The notes under the pieces are model-generated. The model had not been told where the DNA came from. It made no database searches and worked only from the letters and a program-made list of their open reading frames with translations. Below are positions 11,051 through 62,750 of a stretch of 64,000 nt of DNA, one piece after another. Position numbers and translations under genes: made by a program. The first letter of the stretch is position 1; every line of letters begins with the position of its first letter. This stretch comes from a virus, in IMG/VR virus record IMGVR_UViG_3300044729_001198, positions 1-64,000 of that record; one strand, 5' to 3'.

Positions 11051-12646
11051 TTAGATAGTTGAACCCAATGTGTTCAAACCATCAACAAATACTTTACCGT
11101 AGAACTCACCACGAATCATTTCCTTCGCGTAACGAGTCATTACACCCTTACGAGGTTGGAAGTTTTTCGGGTCGTACACCAAAGGAGTCATGATTAATGG
11201 AATGTATGGAGCGTATACAGCACCAGTTTCCAAGAATTGAGCACCTTTGAAACCTAACAAGATAACGTTTTCAGTCATGTAAGGGTTTTTGTACACTTGG
11301 TAGCGGTTAGCGAATGAACCTACTTGAGATACACCCATTGCGAACTGCATTTCAGCACCAGTACCACTAGCAGCGAATCCAGGGATAGATTCAAGGATAG
11401 TTGCAACGTCAGGAGATACTACCATAAAGTTAGCTCCACCTCTCATGGTTTTAGCATGGATTTGGTTAGAAACTCTCTGAAGTACAGTACCTAATGTAGC
11501 GAACCATGTACCTTGAATGTAAGCAGTGTAGTTAGCAGCTGATTGAGCAAAAGCTGAACCATTCCATTCGTAACCAACACGAGCTGACCAGTAACCTGTA
11601 GTCAATGCGTTAGTCATCAACATATCCAAGATTTCGAAATCGATTTCTTGAGAAACGTATTCTGACAACATTGAAGTTAATTCAGCCTCGGCGTCAATTG
11701 AATGGTAAGCGTTCAAATCTTGAGCAAATTCAGGAGTCCATTGTGCTTTCAACTTACGAGTCTTAGCAACGATAGGAACTGAACGAAGTTCAACGTTTAA
11801 TTCAGGAATACCCAAATCAGTTTCAGGGTTTGCAGCGAAACCTGAAGTGGTTTGTTCGAAGTCACCACGAGTGATATCGCTTGGTTGTTTGTGGTAAGCA
11901 ACTTGTACAGCGGTAGCATTTGTTACAGCACCATCAGCTACTACGAATTCAACATAAGTAGAACCATCAGTTGTAGTCAAGTTTTCGATTACGTTAACGT
12001 AAGCAGAAGCGGACAACAATTGGAATGCACGAACGCCTTCGAAGTCAGCATTAAGACCAGCCAAGTTAACTTTTACAACATCGTAAGAGGTTGGAGCACC
12101 ATAACGTGAGTCGAAGTTAATAGAAGCTGAAGTAGCGTTTGAAGCTGTAGCGAATACAGTAGCAAATTGGTCGTTGATAGTATAACCAAAACGACCACCA
12201 CCATAAAGACCACCAGTTGCTTGACCAGCAGTTTCGGTGATACCGAATACTGAATCAGCTTGTGAATCTTTACCTGAACCGGTTGTGAAACCAGGTTGAC
12301 CTGAACCATACTTGAAATCCAAGTAGAATACAAGACCAGATGGTAAGTTCATAGGTTGTACTGAAACGAATTCTTTAGCAGCGATTTCAGAGAAGATACG
12401 TCTTACTAAAGGAAGAGCTACACCAGCCCATTCTTCAGAGTTAGCAGCAGTACCAGTAGCAGATGCTTCAGATACTAATTGTTTTGCTTGGTTTTCCAAC
12501 AAAGTAGCCATACCACTTCTTTCGAAGTCAGACTTGATACCTTCTAAAAGACCGGTCTTAGCCCATTTAGCTACGATACCTTTGCTCTCTTCAGATAATC
12601 TTTTGTTGAAACCAGCAGATTCATTTAAAATGTTATTGATTTTCAT
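11051..12646 (-). CDS. gp23: T4-like major capsid protein
   Basis: VQPMNLPSGLVFYLDF, KTRKLKAQWTPEFAQDLNAYHSIDAEAELTSMLSE, YAPYIPL, PRKGVMTRY. Confidence 0.97.
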   Translation of the reverse strand: MKINNILNESAGFNKRLSEESKGIVAKWAKTGLLEGIKSDFERSGMATLLENQAKQLVSEASATGTAANSEEWAGVALPLVRRIFSEIAAKEFVSVQPMNLPSGLVFYLDFKYGSGQPGFTTGSGKDSQADSVFGITETAGQATGGLYGGGRFGYTINDQFATVFATASNATSASINFDSRYGAPTSYDVVKVNLAGLNADFEGVRAFQLLSASAYVNVIENLTTTDGSTYVEFVVADGAVTNATAVQVAYHKQPSDITRGDFEQTTSGFAANPETDLGIPELNVELRSVPIVAKTRKLKAQWTPEFAQDLNAYHSIDAEAELTSMLSEYVSQEIDFEILDMLMTNALTTGYWSARVGYEWNGSAFAQSAANYTAYIQGTWFATLGTVLQRVSNQIHAKTMRGGANFMVVSPDVATILESIPGFAASGTGAEMQFAMGVSQVGSFANRYQVYKNPYMTENVILLGFKGAQFLETGAVYAPYIPLIMTPLVYDPKNFQPRKGVMTRYAKEMIRGEFYGKVFVDGLNTLGSTI

Positions 12647-12678
12647 CTTAATTTTCCTTTTTTCTTTTGGTTTTAGAA

Positions 12679-13644
12679 TTATTTAATTAAACCAGCCAAC
12701 TTCTTAAATCTTTCAGCTACTGCAGTTCCTTCAGAAATGATTTCTTTTTTAGGAGCAGATGACTTCATAGGTTTAGAAGCAAGTGATTCTTTTACAACAG
12801 TTTTGTTTTTTCTTGCAACATTTAAGTTTTCACCTAATGTAGCATAAACTAATTTAACTTCTCTCAAAGATGCAGCTCTATCGAAGTTTTCGATAACTTT
12901 CATCTTTTGATTTTCGTTCAAGTCGAATGTTCTGAACAATTTGTTAGTGTATAACAATTTAGCGTTCAAAAGATTCACCTCGTTAATGGTTTTCTTTAAA
13001 GAAGTGATAACTTTATAAGCCTCTTCCAACTCTTCCTTGTAACCTTCAGTAGATTCTTCTTCTTCAGCAACGGGCTCTTCTTCTTCGCCATCCATTTCTT
13101 GTAAGGCTTTGATGATTTCGTTGATGTCAAGTTCTTCCTCTTCTTCAGATACAGGTTCATCTTCCATTTCTTCTTCAGCAACGGGCTCTTCACCCATTTC
13201 ATCTTCTTCAGAAACTTCTTCTTCACCGGCCATAGCGTCTTCAAGTTCTCTGATTACAGCTTCAAGGTCTAAATCGTCTTCTTCAGTCTCTTCTTCCTCG
13301 TCACCAGTAACATCGTACTCTTCACCATCTTCTTCAGAATCCATGTCCATTTCCATGTCTTCTTCACCCTCTTCAGAATACATTTCCTCATCTTCTTCAG
13401 TAGCCATCTCGTCTTCTTCAGTAGCCATCTCGTCTTCTACAGGTTCGTCAGTAGTCATTGCGTCCATCTCTGGTGCAACTTCTTCTTCGTCTTCCTCTTC
13501 CAACTCTTCAGCAATCTTATGAGACAACATAGATTGTAGTTTTGGGGTAAATGCTTCTTCGAGAGCCATTTTAGCGTTAGCTAATGCAGTTTCCTTAACG
13601 GCTTTGGCATCGGCAATTGCTTCTTTTAACAAATCTGATTTCAT
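12679..13644 (-). CDS. gp22: Prohead core scaffold protein
   Basis: Very acidic 321 aa directly upstream of gp23; many (L/I/V)xE sites. Confidence 0.8.
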   Translation of the reverse strand: MKSDLLKEAIADAKAVKETALANAKMALEEAFTPKLQSMLSHKIAEELEEEDEEEVAPEMDAMTTDEPVEDEMATEEDEMATEEDEEMYSEEGEEDMEMDMDSEEDGEEYDVTGDEEEETEEDDLDLEAVIRELEDAMAGEEEVSEEDEMGEEPVAEEEMEDEPVSEEEEELDINEIIKALQEMDGEEEEPVAEEEESTEGYKEELEEAYKVITSLKKTINEVNLLNAKLLYTNKLFRTFDLNENQKMKVIENFDRAASLREVKLVYATLGENLNVARKNKTVVKESLASKPMKSSAPKKEIISEGTAVAERFKKLAGLIK

Positions 13645-13677
13645 TTGTTTTTCTCCTAAATTAAGCTTTTTGGATAA

Positions 13678-13794: not shown

Positions 13795-14076
13795 TTAACC
13801 TTCGTTTATTCTTCGAATATACTCTTTTCGTTGAGCATCTTCTCTTTGTTTTCTACGAAGTGTTGTGGGTTTTGTGTACTCTTTCTTATCTCGTAAGATA
13901 TCCATCATCCCACTATCTTTTACAGTACGTTTTAGTAATCGAAGTGCGGCTTCTAAATTACCATCTACTACTTTTACACCAAGCGCGTTCCCATACATGA
14001 ACATATCATCTTTACGGGCCCTCTTCTTCTTTTTGAAGTCTTTGTTTTGATTGTCTCTGTTGTTCTTTTTATACAT
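13795..14076 (-). CDS. rpsU: Phage-encoded ribosomal protein bS21 with basic N-terminal extension
   Basis: VKVVDGNLEAALRLLKRTVKDSG...LRDKKEYTKPTTLRR is the bS21 signature; sits next to the scaffold and capsid genes as in known bS21 phages. Confidence 0.92.
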   Translation of the reverse strand: MYKKNNRDNQNKDFKKKKRARKDDMFMYGNALGVKVVDGNLEAALRLLKRTVKDSGMMDILRDKKEYTKPTTLRRKQREDAQRKEYIRRINEG

Positions 14077-14128
14077 AAAATTTATTTGATTAAAAAAAAT
14101 ACACCTACCAAGTTAATGATAGGTGTAT

Positions 14129-14135
14129 ATAAATA
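14129..14135 (-). promoter_or_regulatory. Putative late promoter motif TATTTAT upstream of bS21
   Basis: About 50 nt upstream of the bS21 ATG. Confidence 0.6.
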
Positions 14136-14155
14136 TGAAAATGTTTTTTATAAAA

Positions 14156-16575: not shown

Positions 16576-17214
16576 TTATTTAACTCCAAAATCACATTCG
16601 CAATATCCACCAACTTCACAAATGATATCTCTCATGATGGTATTCGCTTTAGTATAATTAGTTTGTTTTCTTTGAACACTTTCGTTTATAACACCCTCAT
16701 TTGTGGGTCTCAAGAAAGCACCTTGGGTTGATGGGTTTGATACAAAGTCCCAACAGATTAATTCGAAATCATTTTCAACTGCAACTGTACCATCTTCTTT
16801 GATTTGTTTTACCGAACCCATACCTCGTGATGAGATACCAACAGTACAACCGGCCTTGACCAATTCTTGTAAAATTTTACCAGCAGGTGTATTTAAAATC
16901 TCAACTTGACCCACTACATCATCACCATTCCACCAAACTTCACGGATAATGTGTGACGTATTCTTCAATTCAACAACTGAAGATTCAGGGTGGTCAAGTT
17001 CACCATATGCACGGTTCTCTCTGATTTCTCTACCCTTGTATTTTTCAATTTCTCTTTCAAGAATATCTTTTGGGTAAACTCTACCATTTTGATTTTTAGC
17101 ATTAGCTCTTTGAAGTACACCGCTGACAACGAATCTACCACTTTTATCGTATGATTCTTTTAACATTTGAGGTGTAATCTCAAATAAACTAACATCAATC
17201 AGTAATTGTTTCAT
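16576..17214 (-). CDS. gp21: Prohead core protease
   Basis: NQNGRVYP, GELDHPE, GISSRGMGS, WDFVSNPS; start revised to 17214 (TAATG coupling, GGGAG SD). Confidence 0.95.
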   Translation of the reverse strand: MKQLLIDVSLFEITPQMLKESYDKSGRFVVSGVLQRANAKNQNGRVYPKDILEREIEKYKGREIRENRAYGELDHPESSVVELKNTSHIIREVWWNGDDVVGQVEILNTPAGKILQELVKAGCTVGISSRGMGSVKQIKEDGTVAVENDFELICWDFVSNPSTQGAFLRPTNEGVINESVQRKQTNYTKANTIMRDIICEVGGYCECDFGVK

Positions 17215-17357
17215 TATTTCTCCCAAACTTGTCTTTTACGATATAAATCAAAAAATATTCTTGCAATTTCCCTGCGGATTATATAACGAACCTGCTCAAG
17301 GTCATCAACTTCAAGAGCTTCTTTCAATTTTGAATTTTTGTTACATCCACAAGACAT
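17214..17357 (-). CDS. Small hypothetical protein, 47 aa
   Basis: Manual translation MSCGCNKNSKLKEALEVDDLEQVRYIIRREIARIFFDLYRKRQVWEK*; stop overlaps the gp21 ATG. Confidence 0.7.
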   Translation of the reverse strand: MSCGCNKNSKLKEALEVDDLEQVRYIIRREIARIFFDLYRKRQVWEK

Positions 17358-18750: not shown

Positions 18751-20604
18751 TCAAATCGTGTCATCTAACAAATTAGATTCGTCCATCATACCAAACTCTT
18801 CCGATTCTTCATCGGTTTTTAAAGATTCAATTATCATTTTTTTAGTTTTGACTTTACTCATAGACCTTTTCAATGACTCCAATGTGTTTGGTGAGTTTCT
18901 AAATGAATGATATGCTGAATCAGCACCGACATCGGTCTTTTTACCCAATGGGTCACGACCCATATTAGCAGCATCAGTACCATATGTACCACCTTCAGTA
19001 GGTCTACCAGCACCTTCTTGACCACCTTCAGGTGAACCACCCTCATCTTCAGCCGGTTGTTGTGATACAACAGCCAAATCATGTGGCGTACCAAACGATT
19101 CACCGGTCTTAACGGGATCATTACCTTCATTTACGATTTGTTCTTGTCTAAATCCAAGTTTTAAGTCGTTAATAACTTTAGCTTGTTCAAGTTTCCACTC
19201 ATCCTCTGACATATTAAAGATGTTTTTATACATCCATTCTTGAGATATCATTTTCAACTCCTTCATAGAGTTTACCAATGAAACTTTTTCAGTCCATAGA
19301 GCAGCTTTTTCTTGTTCGTAAATAACTGATGGAGTTGTTAACTCTAATTCAAAATTTACAAGTTCAGCGCCTTCATACCCCTGTGAGTACAAATGTACAA
19401 TAGCAATTTTTGTAAGTTCTGAAAGAGCAATCTTTTGAATTCTCTCAACAGTTCTAGCAAAACGAATATCTTGTTGAGCAAGTGTAGCTTTACCTTCAAC
19501 ACCTTCTTCATATCCAATGAATGCTTTAGGAACTTTTAAAGCAGCCATCATTCTATTTTTCAAGTATTCAATATCATCAATACCACCGAATTCCATTCCA
19601 CTCAATGAATCGATTTCAGTACCACTCTGACCACCTCTAACTGGAAGATAATAATCCTCCAACATATTCTGCATATTGAATTTTAGATTGTAATCGCCAG
19701 TTTGTTGGTCGATGTACGGAACTTTTTTCATCTGGTCGATGATATTCCTCATATGTTGGTCAACTTCACTTGGTGGAATGTTACCAACATCAATTTTAAA
19801 GATTCTTTTTTCAGGAGCTCTCATGATACGATGAATCATCATAGCATCTTCCATCAGGGTTAATTGCTTCCAAGTCTTACGAGCTGGCTCCAACATAGAA
19901 CGACCATATGGTAAGAAGTTTGAATCAGCCATAAGTCTGAAGTGAGCTACTTGGTAGAAGTCAAACTCAACACCCTCTTTGGCTTTACCCATGATGTTAT
20001 ATGAGTTTGGCGCATTTGACATAGAACTCAATTTAAACTTAACTTCATACGGATTTTCGGGATTAAAACCCTCAACACGTTCTATCTCATAAGTGGACAT
20101 TGGTGATACGTTTACAATACCAACTTCAGGTTCAATATCAAGATGTAAATAATAATCACCATACTTGTTCATACCACGAATCCAAGCCCAAAGGTTAAAT
20201 TCAATATTAAGAACATCGTAAAATAAATTATGTAATACTTTTTTAAGATTCTCATCGGACGATTTGATTCTTAAAACATCACCCATGTCATTCTTTAATG
20301 TACACTCATCGGAGTAGATATCGAGAACTGAAGCGATAATGGAGTCTTTATCCATAGCTTCGTAGTCAGTATATAACTCTAATTTATTGGAGTAGTAGTT
20401 AAATTGTTGATTGTACGTTTCCCAGTTTCTTCGAGACGTGTGTAATCTTCCAAATCGGTCGTAATATGAGCTTTGTCTCATATTACCTTGAGATTGGAGT
20501 CTTTGAGTATCGACAGTCTGAATTTTATCCTTCCCAATACGTCTAACGACCACTTGGGTATTGAATAATTTTTTCAGTCTACCATATAATGAATTATCTG
20601 CCAT
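18751..20604 (-). CDS. gp20: Portal vertex protein
   Basis: LTLMEDAMMIHRIMRAPEKRIFKIDVGNIP, MLEDYYLPVRGG, YLKNRMMAALKVP. Confidence 0.97.
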   Translation of the reverse strand: MADNSLYGRLKKLFNTQVVVRRIGKDKIQTVDTQRLQSQGNMRQSSYYDRFGRLHTSRRNWETYNQQFNYYSNKLELYTDYEAMDKDSIIASVLDIYSDECTLKNDMGDVLRIKSSDENLKKVLHNLFYDVLNIEFNLWAWIRGMNKYGDYYLHLDIEPEVGIVNVSPMSTYEIERVEGFNPENPYEVKFKLSSMSNAPNSYNIMGKAKEGVEFDFYQVAHFRLMADSNFLPYGRSMLEPARKTWKQLTLMEDAMMIHRIMRAPEKRIFKIDVGNIPPSEVDQHMRNIIDQMKKVPYIDQQTGDYNLKFNMQNMLEDYYLPVRGGQSGTEIDSLSGMEFGGIDDIEYLKNRMMAALKVPKAFIGYEEGVEGKATLAQQDIRFARTVERIQKIALSELTKIAIVHLYSQGYEGAELVNFELELTTPSVIYEQEKAALWTEKVSLVNSMKELKMISQEWMYKNIFNMSEDEWKLEQAKVINDLKLGFRQEQIVNEGNDPVKTGESFGTPHDLAVVSQQPAEDEGGSPEGGQEGAGRPTEGGTYGTDAANMGRDPLGKKTDVGADSAYHSFRNSPNTLESLKRSMSKVKTKKMIIESLKTDEESEEFGMMDESNLLDDTI

Positions 20605-20672
20605 ATGTTGTTTCTCTAATTTGTATACTCTTACAAGTTATAAATATACAAAAAATAAACTTAACTACCAAA

Positions 20673-22247
20673 TTAAAGTATCCATGTCATGTCAAGGTCG
20701 TTACCACGACCATCCTTAACAACCCATGGGTTTTTACTACCAAGCCGTGAGTTGTAAGCTCCACCGTCACTTTTTCCAATATGTGTAAGCGCAGTTCGTG
20801 TTAAATCAATACCTTGTTGTCTTAATTTAAGAGCGGTATCTCTTACCCATAGTCCTGTGGAAAATGACATTACCAAGTCATCATTATAACCTTGTTGAGC
20901 TTCAGCCCGTGAACCATTCCAAATGAATACAAACAACTCATCAATCAATCTTTTAGAATGAATGATTGGAGCTTTCTCTCTCATGTATGTATCTAATTTA
21001 GAAATGACTAATGGTCGTGTTCTTGATGTCATCGAAAACCCAGGAACCATGTCTTCTTTTTTCTTTAAGTCCCATCCCTTTCGTAGATGAACATCTTCGT
21101 CAACGTACCCTACTTCACGATATGAATAATAAAGATTTTGATAATTTCGGTCAATAACTTCTTGTATAACAGCCCAACCAATGTTTGCGTTTTCAATCAC
21201 CAACATAGCATTGTTCCATTCAGCGGCAATAGAGGTTAGCATCGCTCCAAATTGTTTTGTTTCAATCTTACCTTTATATTCTGCAACTTGTTCTACTGTC
21301 TCCACATCTATAACATGGAATGCTGAGTAATCTTGACCATCTCCACGAGCAACGTCAGCTACAACCACATAGTCACGAGAATAGTTTGGATATTCCCAAA
21401 CCCAATAGTTACTATCGAATCCACGTTTTTCAACTGGATCTTTGATATAAGTTTCTTGATACCATGTTAGGATTGATGAATCAACTACAGTGTAACCTGA
21501 ACTGATAAAGTCACAATCACATTCTTGTGCTGCTCCTTTTTCACCAAGTAGTTTAGTTTGGTCATCTCTCCACTTTTGATTTCGTTCAGGGTGAACAGTC
21601 CAGTGAAGTTTAATTGGATTCCAACTATCACCAGCCTCACCTTTTAACCAAATTTTATGAAACCAATTACCAACACCATTTGGTGTTGAAAGTACAATAG
21701 CTTTACCACCTGTAGACAAAGTTGATTGAGCCGATGTCCAAATGTCTTCGATATTTTGAATAAATGCAGCCTCGTCAATGATTAACATTGATAATGCTTC
21801 AGAACGACCAGCGTCACCTGCAGCAGAGGTTGCTTTAATTTGAGAACCATTTCGTAATCGTAAGGAAAGTTTGTTGTCTTCGATAGTTTCACTCTTTAAC
21901 CAACTTGGTAAACTATCATGCATAAATCTAACCTTTGTTACAAGGTTTTTTGCTACTTCTTGTTTGGTGGCAATTACCAATATGTTTTTATCCTCATGAA
22001 ATAACATCATCCACAACGAATATCCTGCTGATAGGGTTGAGATACCCAACTGACGTGACTTTAAGATTACGTTGAACCGATTATCATTGAAATCAGTCAT
22101 CAAATCTTCTTGGAACGGGTACAAGTTGAATAAAATCTTACCTCGGTGTGGGTGTTGGATGTAACAATATTTTTTAAAGAAATATACGGGATCTTTCGCA
22201 CACTTAATGTACTCCTCCCGTATCATTTCCTTTAAAGTTTTTGCCAT
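20673..22247 (-). CDS. gp17: Terminase large subunit
   Basis: KSRQLGIST, IIDEAAF, ADVARGDGQDYSA, NDDLVMS. Confidence 0.97.
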   Translation of the reverse strand: MAKTLKEMIREEYIKCAKDPVYFFKKYCYIQHPHRGKILFNLYPFQEDLMTDFNDNRFNVILKSRQLGISTLSAGYSLWMMLFHEDKNILVIATKQEVAKNLVTKVRFMHDSLPSWLKSETIEDNKLSLRLRNGSQIKATSAAGDAGRSEALSMLIIDEAAFIQNIEDIWTSAQSTLSTGGKAIVLSTPNGVGNWFHKIWLKGEAGDSWNPIKLHWTVHPERNQKWRDDQTKLLGEKGAAQECDCDFISSGYTVVDSSILTWYQETYIKDPVEKRGFDSNYWVWEYPNYSRDYVVVADVARGDGQDYSAFHVIDVETVEQVAEYKGKIETKQFGAMLTSIAAEWNNAMLVIENANIGWAVIQEVIDRNYQNLYYSYREVGYVDEDVHLRKGWDLKKKEDMVPGFSMTSRTRPLVISKLDTYMREKAPIIHSKRLIDELFVFIWNGSRAEAQQGYNDDLVMSFSTGLWVRDTALKLRQQGIDLTRTALTHIGKSDGGAYNSRLGSKNPWVVKDGRGNDLDMTWIL

Positions 22248-27876: not shown

Positions 27877-27910
27877 AACTTTTTTTTTGTTTCAGTATAT
27901 AAATATAAAA

Positions 27911-35352: not shown

Positions 35353-38300
35353 TTATAAATATCTAATAGATGAAAACCCCTTCACTTTATTGATATCTAT
35401 AATTTGGTCTACCATGTCTCGTGTCTTGTCAATATGAGATATTGTAATAATAAAATCAAATTGTGTCTTTAAGTAATCAAATAATAAATAGAGAGAATTA
35501 AAGTTGTCCGTGTCAAGTGACCCAAATCCTTCGTCAATAGCAATAAAGTTTGGTCTTGGTAAATTTGATACATTGATTAAAGCAGTTCTAATTGCAATCG
35601 AACTAACAAACTTTTCCATACCACTTGTTAGCTCTAATGGCCACACCTTATCATCACCATAACATATGTAGGAGTTTATATTTTTACCATCAGTATTCAA
35701 TAGGATTTGGAAGTCAACAATCGGTTGTAAAATGTTATTGATTTCAATTTCAAGTTTTGGTAGTATTTCAGAAATCAACTGATATGGAACTCCATCACGT
35801 TTTACACATTTTAAATAGTATTCGTAACCATCGTATTTTGCTTCCATGTGTTGAAGTTTGCCAATAGATTGATTCACCATTTCGATTGTTTTTTCAGCAA
35901 TTTTAATATCACTATACACCGACATGATTTCATTAGTAACTTCTTGAATCTCATTTGAGATAGAGGTTTGTGTGAGTTTAAGAGAATTTACATTCATCAT
36001 AACATCAGCATTGAACTCAACTGCTTTTTGTTGGAGTTTAGCTCTACCAATAGTTTCAATTAAGGTATCAATCTCCCTACTATAAGTCATTAACATGGCG
36101 TTACAAGAGTCATAGTTTTTAGAAGTCTGATAACTTAATTTTGATAACTCAACATCCATCTGATTTAGTTTGTTGACTTTTTCGAGAGATTCTTTAACAT
36201 TATATTTTGTCTTGTTTTCACGAGCAGTTTCCAACTCACCAAGTCGAGTTAGTAAAGTTAAATGTAATCCACGAATTTCTTTTTGTAAAGACTGCGCTTG
36301 TTTAGCAAATGGTGTATTTTTATTTTGAACACAATGTTCACAATTATCATCAAATGTAAGCGAACCAATACCATCCAAATGTTTTTGTTTGTGTTTAATT
36401 TCCGATTCAAGTTGGTTTTGGCTTATAAGAATATCAGATTCAATACCATTCCACTTTTGCCATTCTAAATCCATCTCCTTCAACTTATCAACGTCTAGTT
36501 CAATAAGTTTATCAGAAACACGTTTACGTTTTTCTTCAACATCATTTAATTCTACTTTGATTGAATCACACTCTTCTTGATGTTTTTCAAGTTTCTCAAT
36601 AACACTACCAAGTTTAGATTCTAAAGAATCAACATCTTCAATATCTTCAACCGGTTTTAAAGTCATTACATAATCTGATATTTGATTTTGTATCTCAAGT
36701 GTCTTGGATTCCAATTCGTCTTTTTTTGATTGATACTCCGTAAGAGAACCTGTGATTGATGTCAACGTAGTTTGGGAATCAGCAAGTTGACCAGGTAGGT
36801 CTTGGTTTTTATAGTCTTTAAGTAGAGCTGATAATTCTTTAATCTCTTCACTTGCTACTTGATACAAATCTTCAAACACATCCATATCCAAGAATTGCGC
36901 AAGAAGTTCCTTACGTTCTTTTTGAGATTTATCAATGAACCCACTATTGTTTGATTGTGTTGACATAGCGGTCAAAACAAAATCATCATAAGTACCAACG
37001 TAATCACGGATAATAAAGTTTGTATCTCTACGTTGTTCACCATTCAGAGATTCAGCAACACCATTTACAAGTTTATAAAAGTTTACGTCAACTTTAACAG
37101 TACCACGTTTTGGGCTCTTTTTAGCAGCCCTTTCAATTACATATACTTCACCATTGACATCAAAAGTGAACTTACAATCAAATGACATCTTTGAGTAATT
37201 CATAACGTCTTCAGCCTTTGAGGTTCGTGAACACTTATCAAAGATACAAAACGCAAGAGCATCCCATAATGTAGACTTACCACTTGCGTTTGGGGCAAAG
37301 ATACCATAAGCACCTTTCATATTTGTAAAGTCAATAACGTTGTTAGGTCCATATGAAAACATATTTGAGAACTCAAATCTAACAGGAGTCCAAATAGAAT
37401 TTTTCATGGTGTGATTAGAACCCAACTTTGCGTTTATATCATTATTGATTGATTTTACAATCTGAAGTTGTTCATCGGAGATTTGGTCGTTAGTAGTTAG
37501 GTAATCCTCAATCAGTCGATTTTGAAAAGCAACGTCTCTGACATTTTGTAATGTTATTTGATGTGCTCCATTTTGTGAATTTTTACTGATAATCTTTTGA
37601 ATCGTAAGTTCTTCAATTTTGGTTTCTTTTTTCAACTCTGCAATTACACCATTCAAATCGGATTGTTTAGTATCCTTAACACGAATTCTCATCCGTGACT
37701 TCGTTGGGAATTTAGGTTTGTTTACAATAACACCCTCATCTACGTCAACAGTTACATATCCAAAATCATTTTCAATAGCAACAAATTCATGAGTACATGA
37801 TTTAGAATCCCAAACCAATAATCCATGGTTTGGATATAAAGATTCACTATGGTTTTGCATAATCAATGAACCGGGGTACATGATTAATTTATTACCATTT
37901 ACAGCATTGTTTGGAACGTGAATGTCACCCAACAACACCATATCGTAACCAGCAAACGAATCAGCGTTTATGTTATGGTTCTCAATTTCAAAACCATGTT
38001 CGGTTTGAATCTTGTCAACGGCTCCGTGGAACAAAGCAATCTTTACACTGTCTTTGATTTCCGATGATGGTATAAACCCTTTAGCGTCATCAAATACCGA
38101 TTGATGTGTGAATGTGTAGTCTCCATTCAACGTTTGCCAAACACCACTATCTTTTAAATAAAATAAGTTATTATGATTTAGAGCGTTGACAATTGGTTGA
38201 ATAGCATCCATCCGTGATGGGTTATTCAAGTTAGCATCGTGGTTGCCCGGAATGACAATGGTTGGTAGTAAATCGGCTAATGACTTCAAAAACTTTTGAG

Positions 38301-38520
38301 TCATCTCGATAACTTCAGGAGTCATATCAGTTTTTGCGTGTACTATATCACCAGCAACTACGATAATGTCATCGATTTCCATAGTCGATGATATGTACTG
38401 ATACAACCTATCAAACACTACATTGTATTCGGAGTGTCTTTTTAGGTTTCTAATATGTATATCTGCTACATGGTATATTTTACCAATTGTATCGATAGGT
38501 AGTTTCTTTGCTTTTCTCAT
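35353..38520 (-). CDS. Fused Mre11/SbcD nuclease-Rad50/SbcC ATPase (gp47-gp46-like)
   Basis: ADIH, AGDIVH, GNHD; then APNASGKST, coiled coil with CEHC hook, TSGMEK, IDEGFGSLD in one ORF. Confidence 0.92.
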   Translation of the reverse strand: MRKAKKLPIDTIGKIYHVADIHIRNLKRHSEYNVVFDRLYQYISSTMEIDDIIVVAGDIVHAKTDMTPEVIEMTQKFLKSLADLLPTIVIPGNHDANLNNPSRMDAIQPIVNALNHNNLFYLKDSGVWQTLNGDYTFTHQSVFDDAKGFIPSSEIKDSVKIALFHGAVDKIQTEHGFEIENHNINADSFAGYDMVLLGDIHVPNNAVNGNKLIMYPGSLIMQNHSESLYPNHGLLVWDSKSCTHEFVAIENDFGYVTVDVDEGVIVNKPKFPTKSRMRIRVKDTKQSDLNGVIAELKKETKIEELTIQKIISKNSQNGAHQITLQNVRDVAFQNRLIEDYLTTNDQISDEQLQIVKSINNDINAKLGSNHTMKNSIWTPVRFEFSNMFSYGPNNVIDFTNMKGAYGIFAPNASGKSTLWDALAFCIFDKCSRTSKAEDVMNYSKMSFDCKFTFDVNGEVYVIERAAKKSPKRGTVKVDVNFYKLVNGVAESLNGEQRRDTNFIIRDYVGTYDDFVLTAMSTQSNNSGFIDKSQKERKELLAQFLDMDVFEDLYQVASEEIKELSALLKDYKNQDLPGQLADSQTTLTSITGSLTEYQSKKDELESKTLEIQNQISDYVMTLKPVEDIEDVDSLESKLGSVIEKLEKHQEECDSIKVELNDVEEKRKRVSDKLIELDVDKLKEMDLEWQKWNGIESDILISQNQLESEIKHKQKHLDGIGSLTFDDNCEHCVQNKNTPFAKQAQSLQKEIRGLHLTLLTRLGELETARENKTKYNVKESLEKVNKLNQMDVELSKLSYQTSKNYDSCNAMLMTYSREIDTLIETIGRAKLQQKAVEFNADVMMNVNSLKLTQTSISNEIQEVTNEIMSVYSDIKIAEKTIEMVNQSIGKLQHMEAKYDGYEYYLKCVKRDGVPYQLISEILPKLEIEINNILQPIVDFQILLNTDGKNINSYICYGDDKVWPLELTSGMEKFVSSIAIRTALINVSNLPRPNFIAIDEGFGSLDTDNFNSLYLLFDYLKTQFDFIITISHIDKTRDMVDQIIDINKVKGFSSIRYL

Positions 38521-39461
38521 ACACGAAATAATTTGTACTCCATGAGTTTCTGAAGATTCATAGGAGTTGTATTATAAATTTCTTTGTTAATCTTTTCATA
38601 TCCCATTTCGTTTGGGTCATCGTTACCCAAGTCCACAAGATAGGTTTCTATACCATAGTTCATAAATTTCTCTGCAAATCTAATTGCGTTCTTTAACGCA
38701 TCAGAGTCAAGACATATATAAACTTTACTTACTTTTTTATCTATGATTTTTTTCTCAAGATTAGATGGAATTGTTTTACCAAATAATGGTACTGCGTTTC
38801 TACGAATTGCGATAGCATCAAAAGCCCCCTCACAAAGTACCAATGGAATATCCCAATTGACAAAAATATCAAAACCAATGATGTCTTTTGAAACCTTTGG
38901 ATTCTTATGTTTAAATTTCGTAGGGTAGAATGACCTACCAACAAAGAAATTAAGTTTACCACTCTCATCGTAAGATGGGATAATAATTTTTTCATCATAT
39001 TCACCAGATTCACAATATCCTATATTATATTTTACAATTTGCTCAGGAGTTATACCACGACTCATTACATAATTTAAAGCGTGTTTCCACTTAATAGAAT
39101 CTGACTTTTGATATAGTGGTTTAAACTCTTTTGGTAACTCAACCAACTCAACACTTGTCGAGTTATTTAGGGAATTACTTGTAGGGTCGTATCTATTTAC
39201 CTTACTGAATATAGCATTGTATTCATCCCACGTTTGTTTTGATACGTTGAGTTTTTTGAATAGGGATTTGATAGTCTTACCCTTTTCATCAGAAATCCAA
39301 CAATGCCATGGGTTCTCACCACGAGGGGTAATCCGAATGTTGATTTCTAACTTTGGTTTGTAGTGGTCAACAAACGGAGAGTAGAACGCATAATTGTCAC
39401 CCGAAGTTTTCTTCGATTTACCTAATACAAGTTCTAATAGAGCAAGTAGTCTATCTTCCAT
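38517..39461 (-). CDS. DNA primase (DnaG/gp61-like)
   Basis: N-terminal Zn-finger-like region (WHCW), FFVGRSF, TOPRIM LCEGAFDA, CLDSDA. Confidence 0.88.
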   Translation of the reverse strand: MEDRLLALLELVLGKSKKTSGDNYAFYSPFVDHYKPKLEINIRITPRGENPWHCWISDEKGKTIKSLFKKLNVSKQTWDEYNAIFSKVNRYDPTSNSLNNSTSVELVELPKEFKPLYQKSDSIKWKHALNYVMSRGITPEQIVKYNIGYCESGEYDEKIIIPSYDESGKLNFFVGRSFYPTKFKHKNPKVSKDIIGFDIFVNWDIPLVLCEGAFDAIAIRRNAVPLFGKTIPSNLEKKIIDKKVSKVYICLDSDALKNAIRFAEKFMNYGIETYLVDLGNDDPNEMGYEKINKEIYNTTPMNLQKLMEYKLFRV

Positions 39462-39466
39462 TAGGT

Positions 39467-39497
39467 CAAATATACGAAATTATTTTGAATAATCAAA
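39467..39497 (-). promoter_or_regulatory. Bacteroidetes-type sigma-A promoter
   Basis: TTTG-N19-TATATTTG immediately upstream of the primase ATG. Confidence 0.8.
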
Positions 39498-55423: not shown

Positions 55424-55785
55424 CTATCATCTCCATCGGATTCTTTAGGTAGGTCCTTTTCCACTTCGTCAATGGCAGCCATCAATTGTTTCTTTTCTTC
55501 GTCCGACAATATAAAACCACCGGTTTCAGCAGCAGCATTGTCTTTCATCATACGTTGTACTATAGCAGCCAACTTAATTAATGCGTCATCATTTTTAACA
55601 GACACATCAAGATATTCTTTAATCAAAGGCACGACAACAGCCGCATCGTTAAGGTTTCTAACGAGCGGCTCAAGTTGTGCTATCAGTAATTTAATTTGTC
55701 GGTCTTTCTTTTTCTGATTTTCATAAATGTCCTTCATTAAATCTGAAAATGACTTACCTCTAAATATTTCATCGTTTTTATCCAT
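55420..55785 (-). CDS. Hypothetical protein
   Basis: ATG at 55785 with GGAG SD (track start is TTG). Confidence 0.65.
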   Translation of the reverse strand: MDKNDEIFRGKSFSDLMKDIYENQKKKDRQIKLLIAQLEPLVRNLNDAAVVVPLIKEYLDVSVKNDDALIKLAAIVQRMMKDNAAAETGGFILSDEEKKQLMAAIDEVEKDLPKESDGDDR

Positions 55786-56503
55786 TGAATTCTCCAATCC
55801 GATGTGTTATACTCATATTATCACCTCTACTATAGTCGGAGTATAATGTAGCGTAAATGATTTTCATTTTACCAACTACCTTTGTGATATATTGAGTTTG
55901 AACACCAGTTCGTTCTCTAATAAGTATGTACAGAGCCTTTTTGTTATACGAATATAAGTTTTGTCGTGTTCTAAACAATTCCGTTAAAGCATCTGCGATT
56001 TTTCTATCTCTATCTTTTTCAAATAAGGTGTATATGTTAGAGTCCATATATCTAACATAGTAATCCATAAAATCAGATTGAGTTTCGTATTGTTGTGATT
56101 GCCAAACCTCATTTACAATATTACGAGAGGTATCAATCATATCAACCTCTTCTCGCGCTTTAAATTGAGCATAGTTTTGATTGTTCTCATTGAATAGATA
56201 GTTTCTTGCAATTACCGTGAAGTATGAAAAGGCTCTACCATTTTCACCTTTGAATTTATGAATCTTTTCATTTAAAAACGCAACTACATTTTGTTTGACA
56301 TCTTCGTATGGTACATCAAAGTAATAAGTCTTGTAAGTGTGAATTACATTCTCGACTAATTTGTCAAATGGATAATGAATAAACCTATTATAGATTTTAT
56401 TCTTTAATCGTTGGTCATCACACTTATTATAAGCGTTGATAGCGATTTCAGTTATCGCTGTAAAATACCTCTTACTCTTTGGTTTCGTCGCCCTTCTCGC
56501 CAT
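55778..56503 (-). CDS. gp55-like phage (late) sigma factor
   Basis: Sigma region-2-like KIHKF...GRAFSYFTVIARNYL. Confidence 0.7.
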   Translation of the reverse strand: MARRATKPKSKRYFTAITEIAINAYNKCDDQRLKNKIYNRFIHYPFDKLVENVIHTYKTYYFDVPYEDVKQNVVAFLNEKIHKFKGENGRAFSYFTVIARNYLFNENNQNYAQFKAREEVDMIDTSRNIVNEVWQSQQYETQSDFMDYYVRYMDSNIYTLFEKDRDRKIADALTELFRTRQNLYSYNKKALYILIRERTGVQTQYITKVVGKMKIIYATLYSDYSRGDNMSITHRIGEFNG

Positions 56504-56780
56504 AGTATGTCTCTAAATCTTCAATAATTTGATACATCTCTTTAAAGATGAATCCGGTTTCGTCATCAGCTTCAAATGAGCCGATTCTATCAATCTCTTT
56601 CATACGAGCCACAGCAGCATCAATATGTCCTGCCATATTTGATAGTTGTACTTCAGCTGCTTCATATTCAGTATATAAAGCATCGTACTCATATTCTAAA
56701 GCTTCATATTTTTTGAAAAGATTGTATGTGATATAAGAAAGAACACTTACAATTAGTAATAATATAATAATAGTCATCAT
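56472..56780 (-). CDS. N-terminal TM hypothetical protein
   Basis: Hydrophobic N-terminus, acidic coiled coil. Confidence 0.6.
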   Translation of the reverse strand: MMTIIILLLIVSVLSYITYNLFKKYEALEYEYDALYTEYEAAEVQLSNMAGHIDAAVARMKEIDRIGSFEADDETGFIFKEMYQIIEDLETYYGEKGDETKE

Positions 56781-56782
56781 AA

Positions 56783-57574
56783 TTAGTCTTCAATTAAATC
56801 TTTAAAAGCGTCAAATACATTTGTCGAATCAAACCCACCAGAAAGTGTATTTGACATAACATCTCCTAATTTCGCTTTAGTAGCAGGTCTACCATTTGGG
56901 TTTCTTGTTGATTTTTCAGCTGACATTTCTTTCAACCAACGTTCGTTTTCAAATCGTGCAGCAAACAAGTCAGCCGTATGCATGATGAATGGTAGTGAGG
57001 TTTTGATTGCCTGGTCCTTATCGAACTTGATAAAATACTCTTTATTGTTTTCATCATACAAACCATCGGTAAGTTTAATACCAATCCACTCTTCTTGACT
57101 ACACTTAACACCAAACTGATTGAGTAAATAAAACGTTCTATCGGTAAGATTCATCCAATGGATATTTGAATTGTATTTGTAAATCTTACCTTGATTTTTA
57201 ACATGCCACTCGGAATCGTTTTTGATATACAAATCTTCCTCAAGTGTTCCCAGTTTTCCAAGGTCATGGTGAAGTGCTGTAAAGATTACGTTTTCACGGG
57301 TGTAGTCTCCTTGACCCATACCAAGTTCAGTATATAGGTCGTATACCTTTAAAGCGTTCTTGGTCACACGAAGAACGTGGTCAATATATCCACCTGGAAA
57401 AGCATTGTGAAAATGTTCAGTAGATGATGCGGGTGTATAAATGATACGTTCCTCAAAGTGGTCGTACATTTTATTTAAAGCATCAAGACGTTCGCCTGTA
57501 AATGTTTTGTTGATTACGGAACGGAACTTTTCATAGTTGGATACCAACTCTTCTGCGGTAAAATAGTTAATCAT
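56783..57574 (-). CDS. HD-domain phosphohydrolase
   Basis: HNAFPGGYIDHVLRV, ALHHDLGK, MHTAD. Confidence 0.88.
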   Translation of the reverse strand: MINYFTAEELVSNYEKFRSVINKTFTGERLDALNKMYDHFEERIIYTPASSTEHFHNAFPGGYIDHVLRVTKNALKVYDLYTELGMGQGDYTRENVIFTALHHDLGKLGTLEEDLYIKNDSEWHVKNQGKIYKYNSNIHWMNLTDRTFYLLNQFGVKCSQEEWIGIKLTDGLYDENNKEYFIKFDKDQAIKTSLPFIMHTADLFAARFENERWLKEMSAEKSTRNPNGRPATKAKLGDVMSNTLSGGFDSTNVFDAFKDLIED

Positions 57575-57577
57575 ATA

Positions 57578-58213
57578 TTATATAATTTGGTCAATAATTC
57601 CAAGTTCAAGTGCTTGTTCAGCATTTAAGAAGTAATCTGATTTTTGATTCTCTTCCCAATACGTTTTATCTTTTTTAGTGAATTGCCCCATTAACTCATT
57701 ACATTCATCCTCAAGTTGTTCGGAGAATTTAGCATTTGATTTAACATCACTTAATTTACCAATGGCAAATGTGGATAATTGGTGAACCATGATTTTGGAG
57801 TGTTTACTTGCGGTTCGAGTACCCGTACCAGCCGCCAATAATAAAGCAGCAGCGGACATAGCCATACCTCTACAAATTATATTAAACGTGACTCCTTGAG
57901 ATTTCATACTATGAATATAGTCGATTAAAGCAAGAGTCTCCACCACATCACCACCCGGTGAGTTAAGCATAACATTAATTACACTAGCGTCTTTGTTTAT
58001 TTTACGAATCAATCTCACTTTAGAGATTACATCAAAAGTTAAACCATGTACAATCTCGTCTTGAATTAAAATTACATTATCAGTAAAGTCAATACCATAA
58101 TCAAATTCACGAAAATATTTTCTTTGGTTATCGGTATCACTACCATCAACATTAGTGTCTTCAAATCTAATGTTGGTGGTGTCACCGGTAGTAGTTACAT
58201 ACAATTCATCCAT
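57578..58213 (-). CDS. clpP: ClpP-family serine protease
   Basis: LNSPGGDV, GMAMSAA (Ser), IMVHQ (His), DYFLNAEQALELGIIDQI. Confidence 0.92.
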   Translation of the reverse strand: MDELYVTTTGDTTNIRFEDTNVDGSDTDNQRKYFREFDYGIDFTDNVILIQDEIVHGLTFDVISKVRLIRKINKDASVINVMLNSPGGDVVETLALIDYIHSMKSQGVTFNIICRGMAMSAAALLLAAGTGTRTASKHSKIMVHQLSTFAIGKLSDVKSNAKFSEQLEDECNELMGQFTKKDKTYWEENQKSDYFLNAEQALELGIIDQII

Positions 58214-58235
58214 AACTTTTTATATTATATTAAAT

Positions 58236-58267
58236 CAAATATACGAAATTCTTTTGAAGAATCCAAA
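58236..58267 (-). promoter_or_regulatory. Bacteroidetes-type sigma-A promoter
   Basis: TTTG-N20-TATATTTG upstream of clpP. Confidence 0.8.
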
Positions 58268-59392
58268 TTATTTTTGATATCTTTTTGCATTAGCATATGT
58301 ATGCTGATGTCTTGGTGCTGGTGGATTTTTTACTTCACCATACAACTCTTTAGCAACCTCATCATCAGTTGGTACAAATATTACTTCTTCTTTTTCTTTT
58401 TTAATTTGTTCTTCAATTGGTCTATCTTCAATCTCAATTGTGTCTTCATTTGTTTCGATTGGTTCTCCGATTGTAGTTTCTGGTTGTAATACTTCTTCAT
58501 CAACGGAGTCGCTAATAAGAACCCCATCGCCAATGTGAATATCAGTAGTGTTATCATTGATACTATTTGATTGATTTCCATCAGTTTCCTTTTTTGTTTT
58601 AGTTAATTTATTTAAAGCGATAACCATAGAAATGGCTAACGGGTCGAATACGAATACAATCAAAAGGGTAAACCAGTTCACGATTACATTCATAGGTTTG
58701 CCTGTGATTTCAGACATATATCGTAACGGACCAACTTCGGCGGCTACCTCATTGTTGGTTTGTAAATCCAATACTTGTAAATCTAATTGGGTAACTGAAT
58801 CAGTTAATACCTCTATTTTTTTGGATACGGATTCTCGTTGTTCAACGGCTGTTGTAAGTTGTGACTCCAATGCTCTACGTTGTGCCGATGATGTAGATGT
58901 AATTATATTACCATTCCTATCAACACGAGATTGTGTGTTGTTAGCCAAACCACCACGGAGCCCATTTATGGATTCATTGAGTTTTGATTTTTCATCAGTA
59001 TAGTAAGTTAGTTGTTCTTGAAATCGAGACTTCTTTAACTCAACAACCTCAACCATTTTATCAGTAACACCCAACTTGTCAGCGGTGGATTGATATGCTG
59101 ATGTTAAGAATCCATAGATACCAGCCGAGGTGATTAACATCAGTACACCTACAGCTAACGTTAGATACCATTTCATCCAACCAGCTTTACTCCAATGGTT
59201 GTGTAGGTATGAAGCAAGTATGAGTTTAGAGAACTCAAGAGCTCCGGCCATTATGATTACTTCAGTTCTAGCTCCAGCAAACAAGGAACTTAAACCAAAC
59301 ACGGAATAGTAAGCCGCTGAACCGGCTAATGCAAACGTACTGATAACCATCAGAACGATGAACCCATTTTCCCTTGTTAAAAACTTTTTCAT
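58268..59392 (-). CDS. Multi-pass membrane protein with long coiled coil
   Basis: Three N-terminal hydrophobic helices, coiled coil, VFVFDPLAI TM; SD TAGGA; late motif at 59502. Confidence 0.7.
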   Translation of the reverse strand: MKKFLTRENGFIVLMVISTFALAGSAAYYSVFGLSSLFAGARTEVIIMAGALEFSKLILASYLHNHWSKAGWMKWYLTLAVGVLMLITSAGIYGFLTSAYQSTADKLGVTDKMVEVVELKKSRFQEQLTYYTDEKSKLNESINGLRGGLANNTQSRVDRNGNIITSTSSAQRRALESQLTTAVEQRESVSKKIEVLTDSVTQLDLQVLDLQTNNEVAAEVGPLRYMSEITGKPMNVIVNWFTLLIVFVFDPLAISMVIALNKLTKTKKETDGNQSNSINDNTTDIHIGDGVLISDSVDEEVLQPETTIGEPIETNEDTIEIEDRPIEEQIKKEKEEVIFVPTDDEVAKELYGEVKNPPAPRHQHTYANAKRYQK

Positions 59393-59537
59393 TTTTTTTC
59401 CTAAAACCTAATTTTATTAACTTTCTAATCTGTACTTATTATCACAATCAAGTTACTGATAACCGCTTAACGCTTAAGCAAACAAGCTGCTTGTGACTAA
59501 CATAAATATCAAGCAGATTGTTAATAATAATATATTA

Positions 59538-60467
59538 TTAAGCATTGCCCATATTATGCCCCTTTGGGTGTTTACCAAATTTGGAAATGTAATCTAACAC
59601 AGTCAGTTCTTTCATCTTGGCTTCAATGTCAATATCAAGGTCATGACCATATGTATTGATTTCCGAATAGATGAAGTCAGAGTGTGCTTGTGGTTTAGCA
59701 GTAGGGTCTTCTAACGTCTTTGATTCTGAATAGTGGACAAGTGGTTTGACATCACCCCAAGTAGACATAGCAAGTTCAAGGGCTTCTTGTTCGGTCAGTC
59801 CGCCAGTATTGAATGTATGGTGGTGGTAGTCGAACACAATAGGGATACCAGTACGTTCGTGGATATACATAAGGTCTTTAACTGAATACATACTACCTTT
59901 GTCATCATTCTCAACAGTCAGTCGTGTTTGAACTGATTCTGGTAACAATTCAAAATTCTTACAAAATCTATCCATAGCAGATTGCTTGTCACCATACACA
60001 CCATTACAATGGATGTTAATAAGGTTGTACGGACTACGTTCCAATCCCATAAGGTCAAAGTGTTCACCATGAATAGATAAGTCTTTGATGGTGTTCTTAA
60101 CCACGTTCTCGTTAGGTGATACTAACACATTGAATGGACCAGGATGAGACGTGATACGTTGATTGTACATATTAGCGAGACTACCGGCACCACGAAGTAC
60201 ATTTGAAAACTTGTCAAAGTCTGGCATATCTGATAACTGAAATTCAGTAGCCCATGGTACAAGGTCCGATGTCATACGAAATAGTCCGAACCCATTTTGG
60301 TGATTCCACTTGATAATCTCTACAAGGTCACGAGCGTTTTGGAGTGCTAGATTGGATGACCTACTAATACCTTCCTTGAGAAATGTCTTCTTGACCATAG
60401 AACGATTTGTGGTAATCTTTTGTTTACCAAGGGTCATGTTAATACAGCAATATCCTAATTGTGTCAT
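59538..60467 (-). CDS. uvsE: UV-damage endonuclease
   Basis: LGYCCIN, SHPGPF, VENDD, PIVFDYHHH, VHYSES, AHSD, DIEAKMKE. Confidence 0.95.
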   Translation of the reverse strand: MTQLGYCCINMTLGKQKITTNRSMVKKTFLKEGISRSSNLALQNARDLVEIIKWNHQNGFGLFRMTSDLVPWATEFQLSDMPDFDKFSNVLRGAGSLANMYNQRITSHPGPFNVLVSPNENVVKNTIKDLSIHGEHFDLMGLERSPYNLINIHCNGVYGDKQSAMDRFCKNFELLPESVQTRLTVENDDKGSMYSVKDLMYIHERTGIPIVFDYHHHTFNTGGLTEQEALELAMSTWGDVKPLVHYSESKTLEDPTAKPQAHSDFIYSEINTYGHDLDIDIEAKMKELTVLDYISKFGKHPKGHNMGNA

Positions 60468-60483
60468 ATCTTTTAGTTATATA

Positions 60484-60515
60484 CAAATGTAATAAAAAAA
60501 AAGGACTTATACAAG
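60484..60515 (-). promoter_or_regulatory. Bacteroidetes-type sigma-A promoter overlapping a terminator
   Basis: CTTG-N20-TACATTTG upstream of uvsE. Confidence 0.75.
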
Positions 60516-60523
60516 CCCTTTTT
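60494..60523 (-). terminator. Intrinsic terminator
   Basis: AAAAGGGCTT-GTAT-AAGTCCTTTT followed by a T-run. Confidence 0.75.
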
Positions 60524-60532
60524 CATTTTTAT

Positions 60533-62714: not shown

Positions 62715-62718
62715 AATA

Positions 62719-62750
62719 CAAATGTAAATAAAAAAGGGGACTTAAACAAG
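62719..62750 (-). promoter_or_regulatory. Bacteroidetes-type sigma-A promoter overlapping a terminator
   Basis: CTTG-N20-TACATTTG directly upstream of the phosphoesterase ATG. Confidence 0.75.

Follow-up and report, generated by a model that had tools for sequence, protein, structure and literature searches.

Shine-Dalgarno sites on late genes of a bS21-encoding, T4-like phage and a possible re-tuning of the host ribosome

Genome layout and the bS21 locus

This report concerns a phage gene for ribosomal protein bS21, carried by IMG/VR record IMGVR_UViG_3300044729_001198, and the Shine-Dalgarno (SD) sites that precede many of the late genes around it. The record is 186,631 bp long and rated 98% complete; its first 64 kb are referred to here as the window. 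An earlier reading of the window (the original prediction) had proposed that the phage bS21 displaces the host bS21, unmasks the anti-SD of the 16S rRNA and biases translation toward virion mRNAs. We called 240 open reading frames (ORFs) genome-wide, 233 of them on the minus strand. The virus is a T4-like myophage, and the window covers the head-and-tail end of its genome, with the large terminase (TerL, 20673-22247), portal (18751-20604), prohead protease (16576-17214), bS21 (13795-14076) and major capsid protein (MCP, 11051-12646) transcribed in that order on the minus strand. The capsid protein is of the gp23 type and shares 53% identity with that of Flavobacterium phage vB_FspM_immuto (immuto). 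PHROGs matches in the window included the terminase, portal and protease as well as a baseplate wedge protein and a tail fibre. A tail sheath and a giant fibre were matched at 171-186 kb, and DNA polymerase, ribonucleotide reductase, DnaB and UvsX at 140-156 kb, while many structural ORFs had no PHROGs match.

Three observations support a Bacteroidota host. Intergenic DNA contained 24 TTG-N-TAnnTTTG sites in the -33/-7 form of Bacteroidota promoters (consensus ATTTCGTATATTTG), plus 13 of a TAyCTTTAC variant. A gene at genome 112511-114412 (L005:16511-18412) encodes a cohesin domain and a type IX secretion (T9SS) C-terminal sorting domain, the latter matching Por_Secre_tail (PF18962) with 32.9 bits (cut-off 27). 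The closest cultured relative infects Flavobacterium. Taken together these make a host outside Bacteroidota unlikely, and the host lineage assumed in the original prediction stands.

SD cores (AGGA, GGAG or GAGG) were scored at -17..-5 of starts on longest-ATG gene calls, with shifted offsets as controls. The bS21 gene and its upstream region comprise the following features.

13795-14076, minus strand: bS21 gene, 93 aa (Pfam Ribosomal_S21, PF01165, E 1e-12)
14077-14128, minus strand: bS21 leader, no SD core; stem-loop, U8 run at 14092-14099, then A/U-only to the ATG
14129-14136, minus strand: late-type promoter box ATATTTAT of the TATTTAT[AT] family, 52 nt before the bS21 ATG

The Pfam match scored 47.8 bits (cut-off 27) over residues 34-85, and 48.7 bits in a six-frame search of the genome, with about 30 extra basic residues ahead of the S21 domain. 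Judged from its conservation, this N-terminal extension is real. Most of the 179 bS21 relatives found by an exhaustive HMMER search were N-extended, aligning from residue 3-20 onward. Across the 50 distinct bS21 proteins encoded at related phage loci the extension measured 14-44 aa, and it was also present in the closest database relatives examined. An internal start at M25 or M27 was rejected, since the sole purine run there is found 15-21 nt further upstream and the protein sequences of relatives retain the extension. The phage protein departs here from the Bacteroidia type, which has no N-terminal extension. An AlphaFold2 model (predicted local distance difference test score 83.6) gave a small basic helical protein with helices at 41-55, 57-65 and 70-92, the last continuous, and a conserved K-P turn (K69-P70) between the last two. 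A word-indexed protein search returned only three near-identical proteins, and tblastn against cultured phages found no match at E 1e-3 and distant matches only at E 5.

The sequence directly before the bS21 start is A/T-only (...TTAATCAAATAAATTTT-ATG). As the original prediction had claimed, bS21 combines a late motif with an A/T-only leader, and its expression is presumably late, from the upstream ATATTTAT box. We also observed a conserved order upstream of bS21 (14092-14136, minus strand), in which the late box is followed after 1-2 nt by a 9-bp stem-loop, the U8 run and the A/U-only leader. The stem arms lie at 14101-14109 and 14118-14126 (alifold -16.8 kcal/mol, 14 sequences), and the stem is maintained through compensatory changes in 13 relatives. 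Such changes were found in loci L011, L012, L029 and L034, with wholly different arm sequences in the first two. The stem-loop could serve to terminate the upstream unit, in overlap with the promoter, to stabilise the 5' end or to set the bS21 dose by attenuation.

Shine-Dalgarno sites are concentrated on structural genes

An SD core was observed at 50 of 233 starts genome-wide, compared with 9-16 of 231 at shifted offsets, and motif starts peaked sharply at -14..-9 before start codons. The motif is complementary to the core of the anti-SD (CCUCC) at canonical spacing and is enriched over background, and these leaders may pair with the host 16S rRNA during initiation. Predicted pairing was typically -6 to -10 kcal/mol, with 33 genes at or below -7 and one of 233 starts at or below -13; the cores were short, with GGAGA preferred to GGAGG. 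The sites in the window that matter most here, and two late genes that have none, are as follows.

3835-63543, minus strand: 22 listed SD sites, AGGA/GGAG/GAGG purine runs ending 0-9 nt before starts at 3828, 5845, 6557, 10216, 10945, 12646, 13644, 16574, 17214, 17862, 23222, 27212, 35334, 43985, 44673, 51542, 53469, 55423, 55785, 59392, 63128 and 63530
12652-12666, minus strand: purine run with AGGA core before the major capsid gene (11051-12646)
13648-13657, minus strand: SD AGGAGAAAAA before the putative scaffold gene (12679-13644), kept in 18 of 19 distinct orthologue leaders
17217-17224, minus strand: SD GGGAGAAA before the prohead protease gene (16576-17214), kept in 21 of 36 orthologue leaders
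18751-22247, minus strand: portal (18751-20604) and large terminase (20673-22247), late genes without an SD here and in relatives

All 22 sites, which the original prediction had listed, exist. Nineteen coincide with longest-ATG calls, and the remaining three (10945, 63128 and 63530) are internal ATGs with strong sites.

The sites were distributed unevenly. Structural regions had an SD core on 25 of 55 genes and replication regions on 1 of 44 (Fisher p 3.8e-7). When genes were classed by their nearest upstream promoter, 35 of 111 late genes and 15 of 121 early/middle (host-type) genes had a core (p 4e-4), and 3 of 232 circular shifts of the labels reached the observed difference. Some promoters lie too close to the ATG to leave space for an SD; where 12 nt or more separated the two, the contrast persisted, at 19/30 for late and 3/20 for host-type (p 0.001). 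Inside operons the promoter-based contrast was weak (17/77 late, 12/87 host-type, p 0.22), and the SD partition is therefore best described by region and function. The significant difference between late and early classes on which the original prediction depended is thus present.

The late boxes (TATTTAT[AT]) numbered 37 intergenic copies, were about 8-fold enriched in intergenic DNA and lay mostly 12-30 nt ahead of structural-gene starts. Of the 37 host-type promoters, 17 ended within 11 nt (2-11) of an ATG, for example 5 nt before the primase and 4 nt before the phosphoesterase, so their mRNAs would be leaderless or nearly so and could not hold an SD. Seven late boxes were similarly close to an ATG (11 nt or less), five at a distance of only 4 nt. 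Two early regions of the window illustrate the SD-less class.

35353-39474, minus strand: early island of primase (38517-39461) and a Rad50/SbcC-like gene (35353-38520), both SD-less; the host-type promoter TATATTTG stops 5 nt short of the ATG
56472-62726, minus strand: early/host-promoter block without SDs; metallophosphoesterase, AAA_33 kinase, RNA ligase, UvdE, ClpP-like, HD hydrolase and a 102-aa ORF

Host-type boxes in the second block begin at 62726, 60491 and 58243 (first base, minus strand). A 374-aa gene (58268-59392) with an AGGA site at 59393-59402 sits within this block yet is not early: its ATG follows, at a distance of 109 nt, a ATATTTAT box with first base 59509. The original prediction had named ten early genes lying most directly behind host-type promoters and lacking an SD site. 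The absence of a site was confirmed for all ten starts, but only four of them are directly behind such a promoter, and in two of these four the promoter-to-ATG distance is only 4-5 nt, where an SD could not fit. The identities of the primase, Rad50-like, ClpP-like, HD, UvdE, metallophosphoesterase, AAA_33 kinase and RNA ligase genes were confirmed by PHROGs or Pfam. The proposed sigma factor gene (55778-56503) was not, as it had no family match in these searches.

The bS21-bearing relatives are SD-rich

We collected 159 IMG/VR loci around capsid relatives. SD cores were present on 447 of 997 genes (45%) and 56 of 62 capsid genes in the 62 bS21-positive loci, in which bS21 was nearly always 1.2-1.7 kb upstream of the capsid gene. 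In the 48 bS21-negative loci, defined by the absence of bS21 where 3 kb or more upstream of the capsid gene could be seen, they were present on 59 of 688 genes (8.6%) and 3 of 47 capsid genes. Whole-genome searches found no bS21 in immuto or in the complete 162-kb relative G006. Both complete genomes were SD-depleted, with cores at 6 of 225 starts in immuto (21 at shifted offsets) and 6 of 228 in G006 (29 at shifted offsets). The expectation that bS21-lacking relatives do not use SDs is therefore borne out by these two genomes and by the 8.6% against 45% of the loci.

Within the bS21-bearing clade, SD presence was gene-specific and was retained over otherwise diverged leaders. Among distinct orthologue leaders, a core was present in 50 of 56 for the capsid, 18 of 19 for the scaffold, 21 of 36 for the protease and 21 of 38 for PhoH, while it was found in 0 of 26 for the portal, 2 of 19 for the terminase and 0 of 30 for bS21. 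Counting all distinct relatives, 0 of 48 bS21 leaders had an SD core, as expected of a factor that unmodified ribosomes must make; the corresponding part of the original prediction, that bS21 is read by such ribosomes, agrees with this. In the relative G001, 21 of 48 structural and 4 of 32 replication genes had an SD (p 0.003).

A capsid tree divides deeply into two clades, one of SD-poor phages without bS21 and one of SD-rich phages that carry it. Three exceptions occurred within the latter, namely locus L083 (no bS21, SD on 1 of 16 genes), a higher-GC trio without bS21 (about 22% SD) and L062/G005, which has bS21 but no SD enrichment. Sixteen genes were common to four bS21-positive genomes and absent from two negative ones, and bS21 was the sole recognised translation-apparatus gene among them. 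The same phyletic pattern was seen for a ClpS-like adaptor and for unannotated ORFs of 231, 153, 713, 98, 1468 and 999 aa. The ClpS-like adaptor lies at genome 102638-102880 (L005:6638-6880; Pfam E 3e-9), and a ClpP-like protease is encoded at window 57578-58213. We also looked, via divergent representatives, for an independent bS21 phage lineage that is not T4-like, and found only the same head module or a 0.9-kb contig.

The phage bS21 and the anti-SD pocket

In Bacteroidota the anti-SD is held in a pocket formed by bS21, bS18 and bS6, and in F. johnsoniae Tyr54 and Ile55 of bS21 hold A1534 and the 3' tail (PMC7797042). The residues that occlude the anti-SD are conserved in the Bacteroidetes phylum (PMC7797042), and the same article describes SDs as rare across that phylum. 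F. johnsoniae bS21 carrying Y54A or a C-terminal truncation raised strong-SD reporters 1.7- to 5-fold and lowered SD-less translation, and SDs below -13 kcal/mol responded best to bS21 loss (PMC9976891). Ribosomes free of bS21 already exist and prefer SD mRNAs, and the same authors speculate on bS21 exchange and on a phage protease that removes host bS21 (McNutt et al. 2023, PMC9976891).

We compared the phage protein with the Bacteroidia-type occluding signature, taken as Tyr54 (which stacks on A1534) followed by Ile or Val55, two residues past a conserved Ala52. The alignment to the Bacteroidota bS21 9i5v was gap-free from N40 to A81, and in the ungapped register Arg83 occupies the position of F. 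johnsoniae Tyr54, with Tyr86-Ile87 three residues on, one helical turn later. The HMMER pairwise match to 7jil_z pairs residues 35-88 with 5-56, a range implying gaps that are compatible with Tyr86 being equivalent to Tyr54. A structure search with the AlphaFold2 model returned mitochondrial bS21 only (Z 3.4-3.9) and no 7JIL alignment. Counting from the conserved Ala, 17 close relatives had Y or W at A+5 with a basic A+2, and 30 more distant ones had Y or F at the canonical A+2. The feature shared by all phage bS21 forms examined is the basic N-terminal extension, which is absent from host bS21.

Other elements in the genome

The cohesin/T9SS gene has a late promoter and an SD, so that SDs accompany late non-virion genes too. 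An element of about 30 nt, TAyCTTTACTCTGTAATCAATGAGAGAT-ATG, was found in seven copies, at genome 68206-68235 (L003:8206-8235), 87401, 89018, 89222, 104583, 160982 and 161739. The element carries a separate -33 TTG, frequently with TTAACA...TTAACA pairs upstream, and the genes behind it all lack an SD. It resembles a third promoter class, perhaps middle, with a fixed leader. An A-rich run followed by AAGTT-ATG or AAGTTAT-ATG is a frequent ending of SD-less starts (for example window 27877-27890 and 58214-58226). Such an ending also occurs before bS21 in most of the distant relatives (for example in the bS21 leaders of L038-L088) and may be a Kozak-like context for SD-independent initiation. 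At window 60533-62714 an RNA ligase (T4 Rnl1-like), the AAA_33 kinase and the metallophosphoesterase form one SD-less block, with the box that begins at 62726 ending 4 nt before the phosphoesterase ATG (62715-62726). The block is probably an RNA/tRNA repair module.

Discussion

The anti-SD of Bacteroidota is normally caged, and the conservation of SDs in these phages suggests that ribosomes in infected cells can pair with them. We propose the following sequence of events. Early and replication genes, which are SD-less and often leaderless, would be transcribed from host-type promoters and their translation started in the host's way. Late genes would follow from TATTTAT[AT] boxes, with those for bulk products (capsid, scaffold, protease, sheath, tube, fibres and the T9SS/cohesin operon) carrying SDs of 4-7 nt at canonical spacing, sites that selection has maintained across a large clade of relatives. 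The likeliest agent of their recognition would be the late-expressed, SD-less, N-extended phage bS21, exchanging into 30S subunits. There it may relax the grip on the 16S 3' tail, or else steady the short helix between SD and anti-SD through its basic N-terminal tail, and output would then move toward SD-led bulk virion mRNAs. In this scheme ribosome incorporation, anti-SD release and translational bias are all steps that we infer, and we judge the chance that phage bS21 re-tunes the host ribosome toward SD-led late mRNAs to be a shade below even. A more specific version is somewhat less probable. In it, bS21 would restore SD recognition in the Bacteroidota 30S, probably via the N-terminal extension rather than Tyr54 loss, giving an aquatic T4-like clade a private translation channel for virion proteins that handicaps SD-less host and early mRNAs. 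Of the original prediction, the SD partition, the host and the co-distribution with bS21 hold up; the displacement of host bS21 is a candidate step, support for the specific unmasking step is mixed, and unmasking through loss of the Tyr54 contact is not supported.

Several points weigh against this interpretation. The association between bS21 and SDs is essentially one deep split plus two to three further changes; the capsid tree shows only three changes of bS21 state, giving 2-3 independent pairs, too few for any test, and 15 further genes, the entire replication module among them, likewise separate the two clades. The SD contrast between structural and replication genes was not significant in the more distant relative G004. 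The partition tracks protein abundance as much as timing, the late portal and terminase genes being without SDs. The phage SDs are moderate, with only one gene at or below -13 kcal/mol, the class characterised for the host switch, and bS21-deficient F. johnsoniae ribosomes showed no preference for a weak-SD mRNA in vitro (PMC9976891). Chen et al. argue that phage bS21 keeps the Tyr54 contact, leaves the anti-SD blocked and acts like the host protein (PMC9723584). In our own comparison, counting one locus per distinct protein, loci with a Tyr54-type bS21 (48% SD) matched those of the A+5 type (42%) in SD richness. We therefore rejected a lost Tyr54 contact as the general explanation of SD use. 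Finally, a pelagiphage-like genome (L062/G005, IMGVR_UViG_3300009537_000008) has bS21 but no SD enrichment (6 of 60). Its bS21 lies 4 kb from the capsid gene, has a short N-terminus and no aromatic residue at either position, and is nearest to Pelagibacter and Methylophilales myophage proteins; the genome has no Bacteroidota-type promoters and probably has a host of a different phylum. On the strength of these protein affinities and the missing host-type promoters, we did not retain it as a counter-example within Bacteroidota.

The alternative that survives best accepts that the SDs are functional and assigns the pairing to another feature of infection, such as another, functionally unassigned gene of the clade, the loss or proteolytic removal of host bS21, or naturally bS21-free ribosomes, with phage bS21 doing other work (sustaining SD-less translation, out-competing host bS21 or countering a translation-stalling defence). 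It gains from the 16 genes, several of them unannotated, and the ClpS-like adaptor that share the phyletic pattern of bS21, from the coexistence of Tyr54-type phage bS21 with SD-rich genes, from the bS21-free ribosomes with SD preference described by McNutt et al., and from G005, where bS21 without SDs implies an SD-independent role at least there. We nevertheless consider it unlikely, as bS21 is the sole co-distributed gene that touches the anti-SD pocket, and its leader is always SD-less amid SD-bearing neighbours (0 of 48 against about 45%), the pattern of a factor made first.

That the host belongs to a Bacteroidota group with natively SD-responsive ribosomes, in which SDs merely tune bulk proteins and bS21 is unrelated cargo of the head module, seems quite improbable. 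The 44 genes of the replication region avoid SDs, as do most of those behind host-type promoters, the Flavobacterium-infecting sister clade is SD-depleted, and PMC7797042 reports that the occluding residues are conserved in the phylum and that SDs are rare across it. Such a host would fit an SD pattern that follows expected protein abundance and not timing alone, a host placed to phylum and not species, and a bS21 association that is phylogenetically confounded. It is very improbable that the purine motif is not read by the anti-SD at all and instead marks a late transcription-start region, serves in mRNA stability or processing, or is bound by a phage protein, possibly the bS21 N-terminal tail acting on mRNA, for although many sites lie just downstream of late boxes and the cores are short and favour GGAGA over GGAGG, their position is fixed to the ATG (peak -14..-9) and not to the promoter, they also occur on internal promoter-less genes (17/77), and they match the anti-SD core at canonical spacing.

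Re-tuning of the ribosome by phage bS21 is in our judgement the best single explanation, plausible at a probability of roughly 0.5 and resting on a nearly single evolutionary event. Apart from Bacteroidota, no large lineage is known to have its anti-SD caged by bS21. The restriction of conserved SDs to late bulk genes of the clade that carries bS21, and their absence from the bS21 gene itself, turn a vague notion of ribosome hijacking into a specific experiment in F. johnsoniae. If the proposal is true, it would be a natural case of a virus switching the mRNA-selection rule of its host's ribosome and could provide a tool for orthogonal translation in Bacteroidota. Gene calling is affected as well, since start models built on SDs do not behave alike in the two sister clades.

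Comparison with known systems

The general idea of a takeover by phage bS21 is already published. Chen et al. 2022 (ISME Commun 2:31, PMC9723584) described Bacteroidetes phages with bS21 in this gene context and proposed its late substitution into ribosomes. The phage studied here resembles theirs in being T4-like, in its reverse-strand bS21 within a TerL-portal-protease-MCP module, in its predicted Bacteroidetes host and in its N-extended bS21, and the same TerL-portal-protease-bS21-MCP order was found in 60 loci and in L195. Its bS21 differs from theirs in having Arg at the ungapped Tyr54 position and an aromatic residue three positions later. N-terminal extensions of phage bS21 are also described by Al-Shayeb et al. 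2020. The bS21 of Pelagibacter phage HTVC008M is reported to enter E. coli ribosomes (Mizuno 2019, as cited in PMC9976891). HTVC008M and related pelagimyophages are likewise T4-like aquatic myophages encoding bS21, but they infect another phylum, and the pelagiphage-like G005 has a short bS21 N-terminus and no SD enrichment.

Immuto (NC_055915) and its IMG/VR clade share with this phage the T4-like head module (MCP 53% identical), a Flavobacterium/Bacteroidota host, a similar size and the one-strand layout. Immuto differs in having no bS21 anywhere, SDs at 6 of 225 starts with none in the structural region, and a family A polymerase with a RecA-type recombinase in place of the T4-type replication module.

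The closest functional parallel is the autoregulation of rpsU in F. johnsoniae (PMC7797042, PMC9976891), where the same pocket, through bS21 occupancy or C-terminal contacts, switches between SD-less and SD-led mRNAs. That circuit uses bS21-lacking ribosomes and one very strong SD (below -13 kcal/mol), while the phage would depend on a bS21 variant and on dozens of SDs of moderate strength, and the phage bS21 gene is SD-less, the opposite of F. johnsoniae rpsU. A full-text literature search of incomplete coverage found no paper tying phage bS21 to SD-bearing late genes. The study of Chen et al. contains no SD analysis, and what is new here in comparison is the presence of SDs on late genes, conserved within the bS21-bearing clade, together with an SD-less bS21 gene and SD-free sisters that lack bS21.

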